Origin: Candidatus Latescibacterota bacterium
GTDB taxonomy: Bacteria; Latescibacterota; UBA2968; GCA-2709665
Direction of reading: 5' to 3'
NCBI GenBank assembly: GCA_965237675.1
Contig: OZ250150.1
Coordinates: 608,001-672,000 of the forward strand
Length of the DNA stretch: 64,000 bases
In this document: positions 42,282 to 45,427 of the stretch, in pieces
Position numbering within the stretch: the first letter of the stretch is position 1
Layout of the letters: each line of letters opens with the position of its first letter
Program-made: the position numbers and the translations under genes
Notes under the pieces: model-generated
What the model was told of the DNA's origin: nothing
Databases searched by the model: none
What the model saw: the letters and a program-made list of their open reading frames with translations, nothing else

Positions 42282-44087
42282 CTATTTCCCTTTACCGCCG
42301 CTGTTTCCACCTTCGGCAAAAATGACGCCGTTCCGTTTCCTGTTCACATTCAGTACAACGACCTGGCTTCCCGAAAGCACATAGTCCGTGGGAATTCGCG
42401 CCCTTTGTACAACTGTCTGCAGAACCTGTTTAACCGTATCCGACGAACGGGAAAACCGAAGCACCGAAAGCACCGAGTACGGAAGCCTTGACACTTCCCG
42501 CCCCTCAATCGTTACACCCTGCGCGCCGGACAGCAACTCAATGACCAATTCGTTGTTCCGGCCCGCTCGCCCCAAGAGACGGATGAGATGGTCCAGATCT
42601 CTGGCATTATATTCACCTGGCGCACGTTTGGCCTCCTGTTTTTCGTGGGCGGATGCGCTGGAAACGCGTAGAATCAGCCGGCCGCCAGGTGTTTGATTCG
42701 GAATGATCAGCGCCTCCTGAACTTGCTGCAGGCCTCCCCAATAGGGTCTTAAGGAAACCGTAACGCGCACCGTATCGCCAGGCTGGAACCGTGTCTTCTG
42801 CAGGCCAATCGACTTGATATGGGCGGTGTGCGCCCGCTCGGCTTCAACATTGAGGTCGAAGGTCACGCGTTCGATCTGAACCGGCTCGAACGGATTCCGG
42901 ATCAGCTTCGCAAGTGGCGTGGTGACCCCCAGCACGGCGCTTCCCAGCCCCAGCGGGCCGGCATAGACGTTTTCAACCTCCACGGATGGCCGCCCATGCA
43001 GTTCAATTCGCACACGGGACTTCACCGTTACCTCTCCCGTCAGCTTCTCGGACGAAACCATCGCGCTGAATACCGCCATCCTCACAAGAGTGGGGCTCAG
43101 ATCACGGTTTCGCAGGATCTCCATCTGGAACCGTTCCTGCTTGCCCGGGGAGCGCAAATTGATCTGCGCAGGCATCATGTCCACGTCCAGGCCGATGGCA
43201 CCCGCGATGCCCGGCGCACGATCCTGCACGATGGCGCCCATGGTTTCCCCGGCCACACCCAGCTTGAAGGACGCATATTGACTGGGCAACACCTCGTGAA
43301 TATAGGCTGCCGTCATCGGCAACGCCGTGGCGCCGCCAAAAATCATGGGATGTCCAAACCCGACCACCCGGTCTCCGTCGCGATGGGTCAGCGTTCCGAT
43401 TCCCGTCATGCTGAGATCGCCGCGAACCAGTTGCACGCCCAGCGCAGCCCCCGGTTCGAACGCACCGGCAGGCAGTCCCGGATCCATTCCACCGCCGCCC
43501 TGAACCGGCGTCCATCCCATCTTCGAGAACTCCTGTCGAAATTCAACCACCGCCTGCTGTGCGAAACCGGAGATCACAATCGGCAGGCTGATCGGCTTCA
43601 ACTCTGCAACATCCGTCCCGGTCAGATCGACCAGGCGGCGCGCGCCGATTTCCGTCAATCGGACACGCGAACGGACGCCCTGCAATGACGACGGACGATT
43701 GAACAAATCCACCATTTCCGCTATTGGCGTTATCCCGGCGATGGGCTCCTTGGCAAAAACGCCAATTCGATACGATACCGCACCAATCAGCTTTCCTTCG
43801 ATATAAACCGGACTGCCGCTCATCCCCAGGATGACCCCGGTATTCGACAGGGGGCCACCGGACAGCCGGGCGAGAATCAGGTCGCTACCGGGACCGATCG
43901 CGTTGTGCAGCACACCCAGAATTTCGACCTGAAACGTATCGATCCGCGTGCCCTGGAAGACCGTACGGCCGATACCCCGCATACCTCTGTGGAGTTCCTT
44001 CACGGGCATGGTGGCCACAGTCGCCCAGGAATTGCCGACAATTGCGCCCCACAACAGAGCCGGTAGCGTTATTTGCAGCAGGCGCAT
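42282..44087 (-). CDS. SpoIVB-like peptidase S55 domain protein
   Basis: Signal peptide; G.G.TVF.G, GMSGSPVY..GKLIGAV, GT.T and FGHP. Confidence 0.85.
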   Translation of the reverse strand: MRLLQITLPALLWGAIVGNSWATVATMPVKELHRGMRGIGRTVFQGTRIDTFQVEILGVLHNAIGPGSDLILARLSGGPLSNTGVILGMSGSPVYIEGKLIGAVSYRIGVFAKEPIAGITPIAEMVDLFNRPSSLQGVRSRVRLTEIGARRLVDLTGTDVAELKPISLPIVISGFAQQAVVEFRQEFSKMGWTPVQGGGGMDPGLPAGAFEPGAALGVQLVRGDLSMTGIGTLTHRDGDRVVGFGHPMIFGGATALPMTAAYIHEVLPSQYASFKLGVAGETMGAIVQDRAPGIAGAIGLDVDMMPAQINLRSPGKQERFQMEILRNRDLSPTLVRMAVFSAMVSSEKLTGEVTVKSRVRIELHGRPSVEVENVYAGPLGLGSAVLGVTTPLAKLIRNPFEPVQIERVTFDLNVEAERAHTAHIKSIGLQKTRFQPGDTVRVTVSLRPYWGGLQQVQEALIIPNQTPGGRLILRVSSASAHEKQEAKRAPGEYNARDLDHLIRLLGRAGRNNELVIELLSGAQGVTIEGREVSRLPYSVLSVLRFSRSSDTVKQVLQTVVQRARIPTDYVLSGSQVVVLNVNRKRNGVIFAEGGNSGGKGK

Positions 44088-44311
44088 CACTATGCAAACC
44101 CCTTTTCGAAAATTGGTGTGAGAGCCACGAAATTTACGGTGCGCCCTCAAAAAAGTCAAGCATTGCAGCGTCCTGTCTGCCGCGTCCTAAGTTCTTGCAG
44201 AACAATAACGGAACGATATCGATGGCGCAAATATAATACCGGTTTTCGGAGTGTGGAACAAGCCCCTTGTGCAAACCCGATCTTATTCTTATCATAATTC
44301 CATAGCGAATC

Positions 44312-44773
44312 ATGTTGCTGGCCGTTGGCAAATGCCGCAAGCCGTACCTGAGACAAGGCGTGTCGGACTATATCGAACGCATCCGGAGATACGCCAGCCT
44401 GGAGCAGATCGAACTGAGAGAGGACCGGGCCCCGAGGAAGGGCACTACGCCAGGTGACCGTGACAGAGAAGGCGAACGCATCCTCCGAAACCTGCCGGAG
44501 AACGCTTATGTCGTCGTCGTGGATCCGGCCGGAGATACCTGCAGTTCCGACGCACTCGCGCGGCGTATCCAGAAATTGCGTATTGAGGGTATGAGCCGAA
44601 TCGCGCTTGTCATTGGCGGACCCTGTGGCCTTGCCTCCCAGGTTATCCGGCGTGCCGACTGGCGCCTTTCGCTTTCTTCCTTCACCTTCCCGCACGAAAC
44701 CGCCCGTCTGGTTCTCCTGGAACAGATCCACAGGGCATTTACCATAATGCGCGGCGAACCGTATCACAAGTGA
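44312..44773 (+). CDS. rlmH: 23S rRNA pseudouridine-1915 N3-methyltransferase
   Basis: AVGK, IGGP.G, SLS..TFPH and EQI.RA.TI..G.PYHK. Confidence 0.95.
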   Translation: MLLAVGKCRKPYLRQGVSDYIERIRRYASLEQIELREDRAPRKGTTPGDRDREGERILRNLPENAYVVVVDPAGDTCSSDALARRIQKLRIEGMSRIALVIGGPCGLASQVIRRADWRLSLSSFTFPHETARLVLLEQIHRAFTIMRGEPYHK

Positions 44774-44841
44774 AGGCCAGCGCAGACAGACCCGTAACGA
44801 CGCGTGAAGGATTCAGGCCGTCCATATTCCGAAGCCCGTAG

Positions 44842-45086
44842 AAAAAAAAAGCCCGGAAAACAGGTCCATCCGACAGCCGTGGAGAGATGATTCCGCCACC
44901 GGAATCCGGCTGCCGCGAACGTCTCCTGTTTCCGGGCTTTTTAAATGCAGACAGAAGTGCCTGGATATGCAGTTTCGGGGGAATGGAAGGAACGTAGATC
45001 CGGCATCCACGGATAACGGCCGGAGGGGTATCGGCCCCACGGGTGCCGGAAGCGGGAAAGCTTCAATCGCAGGCGTTTTGAAAGCA
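44842..45086 (-). ncRNA. Candidate structured small RNA (~245 nt)
   Basis: Promoter upstream, several stems with G-U pairs valid only on this strand, closing stem followed by U9; 5' end estimated. Confidence 0.55.
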
Positions 45087-45091
45087 ATTGA

Positions 45092-45120
45092 AAGATAAGC
45101 CATTGTTTTTTTTTAGTCAA
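45092..45120 (-). promoter_or_regulatory. sigma70 promoter with no downstream CDS
   Basis: Minus strand TTGACT-N17-TATCTT; A9 run in the spacer; AT-rich upstream region. Confidence 0.65.
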
Positions 45121-45427
45121 GGGTAAGTTTGTCATAATATACTGTTTTACATCATCTTGTGGTCACCTACACGAAATATACCTTATATAGATTTTAACGC
45201 AGCGAACCCTCCGGAACCGCAAATCGCGGCGCCGGGTGCGAGGGTATTCCCGGAATCGATAGCGATATCGCCCCTTCCCTCGACACTCTCTTCTCTTACG
45301 ACTTCGAAAATACGTCCCTGTCCGATATCACCACGGTCATCGAGGAGGCCGGAGGGCACAACCTCCGGCGTAGCCAGATACTTCTGGACAGGCTCCCGTT
45401 TCGACGCTATCTTCGATGTTCGCGGCT

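Follow-up and report, generated by a model that had tools for sequence, protein, structure and literature searches.

The window analysed here is a stretch of 64,000 nucleotides (nt) of a bacterium of the phylum Latescibacterota (positions 608001–672000 of contig C1 of genome G000, which is 5.6 Mb in size and 99.9% complete). On its minus strand, at positions 44842–45120, lies what is very probably a real small RNA (sRNA) gene, judging from its sequence and that of its relatives. The unit combines a promoter conserved across the order, a 5' half with cytosine-rich hairpin loops and a 3' domain with covarying stems. The putative RNA gene is specific to one order of Latescibacterota, with two families (f1 and f2). 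It has the general features of a trans-encoded sRNA, i.e. a predicted promoter and terminator of its own, an intergenic position and no conserved open reading frame (ORF).

Latescibacterota (formerly WS3) have, to our knowledge, no cultured member, and a full-text literature search found no paper on a regulatory RNA from this phylum. With its promoter, covariation-supported structure and phylogenetic range, the locus is a defined candidate for Rfam, for the annotation of metagenome-assembled genomes and for metatranscriptomes.

Promoter and predicted limits of the transcript

The features of the unit, all on the minus strand, are as follows (the three promoter elements are read from the sequence):

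45092–45120: promoter block; the whole block, including the spacer, is conserved across the order
45120–45115: −35 hexamer TTGACT
45114–45106 and 45105–45098: 17-nt spacer, consisting of A9 and CAATGGCT
45097–45092: −10 hexamer TATCTT
45059–45086: hairpin H1, at the predicted start (consensus fold of 15 same-genus sequences, alignment columns 6–34)
44999–45050: hairpin H2, with the outer stem UCCGG/CCGGA
45036–45032 with 45022–45018: inner stem of H2, GGCCG/CGGCC
45031–45023: C-rich loop of H2, AUACCCCUC
44971–44998: pyrimidine-rich stretch UCUACGUUCCUUCCAUUCCCCCGAAACU, with the second C-run, CCCCC, at 44981–44977
44851–44937: conserved 3' domain, a long irregular hairpin (alignments A1 and A2, model R1)
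P1 of the 3' domain: GCCCGGAAACAGG/CCUGUUUUCCGGGC
P2 of the 3' domain: variable
44915–44908 with 44878–44871: P3, CGGCAGCC with GGCUGUCG, including an invariant G-U pair
44906–44902 with 44893–44889: P4, GAUUC with GAAUC
44880–44888: asymmetric internal loop AUCUCUCCA, on the 3' side between P4 and P3
44842–44850: U9 tract, which with the 3' domain would form an intrinsic terminator

A promoter scan scored the site at 9 of 12 matches. Between positions 44000 and 46000, 5 promoter-like sites were found, compared with 0.9 expected from shuffled sequences. The block TTGACn-nnnnAAAAACAAnGGCT-TATCTT with its 17-nt spacer lies 5' of the RNA in 68 of 69 loci, and the lone locus without it (L062) is a chance match. 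When up to two mismatches were allowed, the promoter pattern occurred in 21 of 21 genomes of f1, in 30 of 31 genomes of f2 and in none of 115 genomes of other families; the reversed pattern, used as a control, did not occur at all. The phylogenetic distribution of the promoter block is that of the sRNA, and in the window's own genome the block is present in one copy. All loci with enough DNA have both the promoter block and the 3' domain, oriented alike and separated by 187–335 nt.

The A-run of the spacer changes in composition (A9, GGGAAAAAA, GAATAAAAA and others). Where the run is shorter, the remaining positions are occupied by other bases, and the spacer measures 17 nt in all 68 copies. 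Because the spacer length is constant, the idea of a preliminary description of this DNA that the A9 run could vary by slippage is left without support. A sigma-70-type promoter with a conserved spacer is unusual. Its conservation suggests a bound regulator or a strict requirement on promoter strength. The upstream regions of the genes for transfer-messenger RNA (tmRNA), RNase P RNA and signal recognition particle (SRP) RNA are unrelated to the block. A sigma-54 reading of TGGC...GC was rejected: it fits genus g6 only, and by eye the GC at the required distance is not conserved. The AT-rich 20 nt directly 5' of the −35 hexamer (ACAGTATATTAnGACAAACTT) are conserved in the genus.

From the usual distance to the −10 hexamer, transcription would start at about 45086–45084. 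The RNA would then be about 245 nt long and run from about 45085 to about 44845. The approximately 245 nt 3' of the promoter are without a conserved ORF. An ATG-initiated ORF of 96 amino acids (aa) does overlap the unit (44813–45103, with its start within the promoter spacer), but it has no Pfam match and is intact in only 3 of 15 same-genus genomes, and was rejected as a gene. The preliminary description had reported no credible ORF, a promoter with nine adenines in a 17-nt spacer, two stems and a terminal run of nine uridines. Its view of the ORFs holds, and the promoter, spacer, stems and U9 tract were all recovered, the stems as parts of the minimum free energy (MFE) fold.

Structure and distribution of the RNA

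The RNA read from the minus strand folds with an MFE of −102.4 kcal/mol, compared with −81.6 ± 5.4 kcal/mol for shuffled sequences (z = −3.87), and none of 200 shuffles was as good. For the plus strand, z was −2.71 and one of 200 shuffles was as good. The minus-strand MFE fold contains the UCCGG/CCGGA stem, the inner GGCCG/CGGCC stem and the long 3' hairpin closed by GCCCGGAAACAGG/CCUGUUUUCCGGGC. The consensus fold of the genus comprises H1, H2, a small hairpin, the CCCCC stretch and the 3' domain.

The 3' domain was described by a covariance model (R1; 111 positions, 27 pairs) and by alignment A2 (47 sequences, 46 distinct rows), which extends alignment A1 (42 sequences). In A2, 95.1% of 1237 cells form standard pairs, compared with 87.8% in shuffles (0 of 500 as high). 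Moreover, 15 of the 27 pairs changed on both sides, which no shuffle out of 500 reached. These covariation figures overstate independence, however, since the sequences share descent and their alignment had been fitted to the model. When the partners were slid by one to three columns, pairing fell to 37–55%. Compensatory changes include AAA/UUU to GGG/CCC in P1, CCG/CGG to CUG/CAG and, in genera g8 and g9, G-C to A-U at the junction of P3 and P4.

The strand can be read from the same pairs. The preliminary description had argued that G-U pairs work on the minus strand and would be A-C mismatches on the other, and the larger set bears this out. Across all pairs of the 3' domain there are 128 G-U cells compared with 29 A-C cells, which places the RNA on the minus strand. 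Read on this strand 95.1% of the cells pair, and on the other 87.1%. The G-U pair of P3 is found in 43 of the 46 rows.

The internal loop AUCUCUCC of the 3' domain is nearly invariant. Its core, CUCUCC, is invariant in the 42 sequences of A1, and no departure is visible in the 47 of A2. The core is also kept in 16 metagenome contigs, for which the search pattern itself demanded CTCTCC. Five to nine uridines (U5–U9) follow the stem in the window's own genus. The combination of a G+C-rich stem and a U-tract, which characterises intrinsic terminators, was thus found in this genus and only partly across the order. The loop of P4 is about 17–20 nt longer (CUGAGGUGCAACCACACACGCG) in g8, g9 and metagenome relatives (L105–L109, L124–L137). 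This insert is well conserved and may be an added helix or a binding site.

The 5' half measures about 120–250 nt, with about 145–250 nt as a second estimate for relatives, and can be aligned within genera only. What recurs is the C-runs, mostly in hairpin loops: none of the 47 RNAs has fewer than two runs of four or more cytosines (range two to four). The mean number of such runs was 3.2 per RNA, compared with 0.95 in shuffles of the same sequences; runs of four guanines had a mean of 0.28. In 41 of 47 RNAs, a stem of 5 bp or more places the C-run at about +55 in a hairpin loop; with stems of 4 bp or more, the count is 46 of 47. Among 5000 random genomic C-runs, used as a control, these values were 17% and 39%. 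The stems at the position of H2 have 19 different sequences, and 17 of their 106 pairs are G-U. The loop reads AUACCCCUC in genus g1 and UCCCC in family f2. In most homologues a third C-run follows at about 100 nt from the start. The sequence around the C-runs varies. Unpaired segments rich in cytosine and uracil (CU-rich), which had been pointed out in the window's sequence, turn out to be a conserved hallmark of the RNA, both in the C-runs and in the AUCUCUCC loop.

The window's own genome has a single copy of the 291-nt unit, which is not a multicopy repeat, a possibility raised at the outset. A weak 30-nt match at C1:4939695 was rejected as a second copy, as it has neither promoter nor 3' domain. 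Searches of this genome with short C-loop motifs were unspecific. The full-length unit is present, with 84–88% identity, in each of 14 same-genus genomes. Outside the genus but within the order, BLAST found two islands only, 190–340 nt apart and in the same orientation: the promoter block (~90% identity) and a 40-nt core of the 3' domain.

Model R1, run on genomes with Infernal's stricter filters, gave matches in 47 of 151 Latescibacterota genomes (G000 included). By family, and with G000 excluded, these were 18 of 18 genomes in f1, 28 of 30 in f2 and 0 of 102 in twelve other Latescibacterota families. In genus g5 the RNA is present with a slightly altered P4; it was reached via the promoter and missed by the BLAST and R1 searches.

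A pattern of the conserved core was also searched in one genome per species (185,579 species) and matched 39 records, of which 38 are real and all in this lineage. By label, 33 records were Latescibacterota or Latescibacteria, three Gemmatimonadota and one Armatimonadota, and two had no phylum name. The three Gemmatimonadota records have sequences identical or near-identical to genomes of genus g1. The Armatimonadota record (L062) is a chance match in an apparent coding sequence, with no R1 match and no promoter. A metagenome scan gave 17 further contigs, 16 of them confirmed by R1, and the promoter was present in all 13 with enough upstream DNA. L127 was set aside as a chance pattern match with neither model match nor promoter. 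The metagenome records holding the RNA sequence were all contigs of at least 1 kb, none of them of transcript size, and the listing of sequencing runs for it comprised six contig rows from three studies and no RNA run. The preliminary description had called the locus an orphan promoter-to-terminator unit. An independent non-coding RNA gene on the minus strand remains well supported by these comparisons; the word orphan does not apply, since the unit is conserved across the order.

Base pairing and protein binding as possible modes of action

In agreement with the preliminary description, which had suggested a search of Rfam and saw no motifs of SRP RNA, tmRNA or RNase P RNA, no family of Rfam 15 matched anywhere in the window at gathering thresholds. 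The genes for SRP RNA, tmRNA and RNase P RNA are absent from the window and lie elsewhere in the genome (67.9, 204.6 and 296.5 bits). At expect values (E) up to 10, positions 44600–45400 gave chance-level matches only. SdsR/RyeB (RF00111; 16.5 bits against a threshold of 38, E = 4.5) and ncS025 (RF02869; 15.9 bits against 46, E = 4.1) were rejected, as both alignments rest on the terminator hairpin and U-run. Neither RsaE/RoxS nor the 6C sRNA (B11) of Actinobacteria, which we take to be Rfam RF01066, was among the matches. A mimicry of the 16S 3' end, in which GYAGCCG/CGGCUG and GGAAUCAUCUCUCC would resemble helix 45 and the tail opposite the Shine-Dalgarno (SD) sequence, was also rejected. 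The local alignment was not significant, with 491 of 2000 shuffles (last 45 nt) and 201 of 500 shuffles (whole 16S) scoring as well.

The candidate represents a new sRNA family of a known kind. As to its action, our tentative first choice, held with somewhat less than half of our confidence, is a chaperone-independent trans-acting riboregulator that would work like 6C or RsaE/RoxS while standing outside those families. The exposed C-rich and CU-rich segments would act in trans by pairing with G-rich stretches of mRNAs, typically the SD region, and this would block initiation or alter mRNA stability. With strong G-C pairing, no chaperone would be needed, as in 6C and RsaE/RoxS. The almost invariant 3' hairpin with AUCUCUCC would double as the terminator.

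This ranking follows from the SD use of the host, the lack of detected chaperones and the two models. GGAG is enriched about 10-fold at positions −13 to −9: it stands 9–13 nt before the start in 106–168 of ~4200 long ORFs per position, compared with 9–21 further upstream. The preferred SD 8-mers spell GAAAGGAGG, and the 16S tail GGAUCACCUCCUUUCU is canonical. Hfq, ProQ, CsrA and RRM_1 were not found in G000. As for the models, 6C is shorter than the Latescibacterota RNA, which would measure about 245–350 nt. According to one report, the C-rich loops of 6C bind several mRNAs without Hfq or ProQ, in hosts lacking both (PMC6486639). For RsaE/RoxS, another report describes how the C-rich regions CRR1–4 of RoxS pair with G-rich SD sequences and block translation (PMC4409812).

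Like 6C, the candidate is a small RNA with C-runs in loops, from a host in which Hfq and ProQ were not found. Unlike 6C, it belongs to another phylum, and it has an invariant 3' domain of ~90 nt, a CU-rich internal loop and a conserved promoter spacer; there is no similarity in sequence or by covariance model. It resembles RsaE/RoxS in its two to four C-runs and in a host that uses SD sites, and differs in length and 3' domain and by the absence of an Rfam match. If the C-loops do act without Hfq and ProQ, Latescibacterota would be the third lineage to have arrived at this independently, after Actinobacteria and Firmicutes.

Several results weigh against base pairing as the mode of action. A target scan with RNAduplex, in which three exposed segments were compared with 13,935 crude start-codon windows of G000, gave nothing above chance. 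The best match was a 13-nt perfect complement to the H2 loop (CGGAGGGGTATCG; G000:C1:3704207–3704219, positions 608–620 of L120), of which an estimated ~0.25 would be expected by chance. This site, 26–38 nt 5' of the start codon (ATG) of a 1090-aa ORF, falls within the end of the ORF before it. Among the SD variants, the complement of the invariant loop, GGAGAGAU, is not a preferred one. GGAGAGAT stands upstream of starts at 34 of 225 genomic sites and is not a preferred SD form either. Moreover, P4 and the inner half of P3 never vary in sequence, which suggests that sequence rather than shape is recognised; a surface bound by a protein or the ribosome would more typically have such stems than a plain terminator would. 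Family f1 retains the U-tract and much of f2 has a weak one or none, so that the 3' end is uncertain in the latter family. The last point concerns a second copy of the promoter block, which drives a leader of 200–250 nt in seven genomes.

A separate observation concerns a 367-aa ORF on contig C1, presumably a multicopy mobile element, which is present in at least four copies with identical upstream sequence (starts at 593552 on the minus strand and at 2920634, 3048673 and 4712357 on the plus strand).

The second loci (L070–L073 and L116–L119) are listed for eight genomes, G020, G017, G050, G036, G048, G042, G049 and G045, one more than the seven counted above. Their promoter variant is ...AAAAAACAAAGGCTTATCTT. 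The leaders have hairpins with CCCC loops (e.g. GAGAAC-gcccc-GUUCUC), and the 3' domain of the sRNA is absent from them. The genes that follow encode signal-peptide proteins, with CARDB in f2 (Pfam E = 3.6e-17) and NHL repeats in f1 (TEN_NHL E = 6.6e-20). Two similar RNAs cannot pair with each other, which excludes leaders of this kind as pairing targets of the sRNA, and therefore a shared binding partner fits these loci at least as well. As the conserved promoter spacer is common to them, it offers an entry point to transcriptional regulation in Latescibacterota.

The strongest alternative, and one that agrees with the data almost as well as base pairing, is an RNA that sequesters or guides a protein. 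The CCCC loops, the invariant 3' domain or both would bind an RNA-binding protein in the manner of CsrB/RsmZ, and the C-rich leaders of secreted-protein genes would be the mRNA targets of the same protein. We consider this somewhat unlikely. CsrB and RsmZ display GGA loops for CsrA. The candidate is like them in that a short motif is repeated in hairpin loops, here with covarying stems, and is shared by mRNA leaders elsewhere. It is unlike them in that the motif is CCCC, with only two to four copies, and CsrA was not found. Protein binding would account for P3, P4 and the internal loop being invariant in sequence and not merely in pairing, for the leaders with the same promoter and CCCC loops before CARDB or NHL genes, and for target scans that gave no base-pairing target. 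On the other side, none of the four RNA-binding proteins searched for was found, and the neighbours (rlmH and a gene for an S55-like peptidase) include no conserved gene for such a protein. The flanks of the C-runs vary, which is compatible also with simple G-C pairing, and the window's own genome has no second locus.

If protein binding is correct, the RNA points to a new post-transcriptional regulator. An extended form of this idea makes the RNA the decoy half of a Csr-like circuit. A protein or the ribosome would recognise the CCCC loops and the AUCUCUCC-bearing 3' domain, the CARDB and NHL leaders would be an order-specific regulon with the same promoter, and the spacer would be the operator of a dedicated transcription factor. 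We regard this extended form as unlikely.

Neighbouring genes and the remaining alternatives

The genes next to the unit in the window are:

44312–44773, plus strand: rlmH, SPOUT methyltransferase (Pfam SPOUT_MTase E = 3.4e-47); convergent, ends 69 nt from the 3' end of the RNA
42282–44159, minus strand: 625-aa gene with a weak SpoIVB/S55 peptidase match (Pfam Peptidase_S55 E = 4.3e-09, residues 54–144)
start at or after 45447, plus strand: amidase gene

The match of the S55-like gene is partial, and its start codon is uncertain (TTG at 44159). Synteny was examined in 35 genomes with enough flanking DNA. The unit, first described beside rlmH, keeps this place in 31 of the 35, with a convergent rlmH-like gene directly downstream of the RNA; the gene is missing in four. 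The 31 rlmH-like neighbours include one remnant of only 40 aa, one partial gene and one gene divided between two frames. The S55-like gene lies downstream on the strand of the RNA in 35 of 35 genomes, and the gene upstream of the RNA differs between the families.

Read on the plus strand, the 3' hairpin is preceded by A9 and followed by U5. As the U5 follows the hairpin on the rlmH strand, it probably also terminates rlmH, i.e. it would serve both genes. In this the hairpin resembles the bidirectional terminators of convergent genes, being G+C-rich, flanked by an A-tract and a U-tract and placed between the RNA gene and rlmH. It is unlike them in its length of ~87 nt, its conserved inner helices, its invariant loop and its persistence without rlmH: at the four loci where rlmH is absent (L017, L018, L023 and L027), the 3' domain is unchanged. 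Therefore it is not merely the rlmH terminator, which the preliminary description had named as a possible undoing of its proposal.

This arrangement allows the RNA to be read as a cis-acting element, either through mutual antisense or transcriptional interference with the 3' end of rlmH or as a long leader of the S55-like gene. The conserved order of RNA, rlmH and S55-like gene agrees with such a role, and an rlmH mRNA ending at a hairpin that can terminate both strands would be complementary to ~100 nt of the RNA. Four genomes lack rlmH at this place, and in them the RNA stands ~100–115 nt upstream of the S55-like gene. The weak U-tract in f2 also agrees with a cis-acting role. Nevertheless, a cis-acting role is quite improbable. 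The RNA and its 3' domain are unchanged at the loci without rlmH, 31 of 35 genomes have an opposite-strand gene between the RNA and the S55-like gene, in the window's own genus the RNA runs into a strong U9 terminator, and an antisense overlap would not reach the conserved C-loops of the 5' half.

A divergent housekeeping RNA, chiefly 6S RNA, is very improbable. The 6S model (RF00013) detected nothing in the whole G000 genome at E up to 1, which would leave room for a divergent form, but it finds only 5 of 14 control genomes and therefore its silence says little. A single-copy, order-wide RNA with a strongly conserved promoter would also agree with 6S RNA. However, the candidate has no stem closing its 5' and 3' ends and does not form a rod interrupted by a central bubble; the 3' domain pairs within itself, and the 5' half is a series of individual hairpins. 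No 6S-type model of Rfam matched the region at E up to 10, and the restriction of the RNA to one order does not suit a universal housekeeping RNA.

It is hardly credible that there is no RNA gene at all and that a bidirectional rlmH terminator, for which the hairpin with U5 on the rlmH strand would speak, merely stands beside a chance promoter-like sequence, given the fixed spacing and orientation of promoter and 3' domain in all loci with enough DNA, the strand-specific conservation of the internal loop and the G-U pairs, the domain that stays where rlmH is gone and the C-loop hairpins conserved between promoter and terminator.

Next to the sRNA, rlmH looks damaged in two genomes of the same genus, G002 (L007/L100) and G008 (L002/L078). 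In G002 the match covers residues 4–43 only, and in G008 it consists of two pieces that overlap and lie in different frames. Either real decay or an error of assembly could be the cause. On the other side of the unit, a promoter-like site on the plus strand (TAGTCA-18-TATACT, 45114–45143) lies back to back with the sRNA promoter, which it overlaps, and is a possible promoter of the amidase gene.

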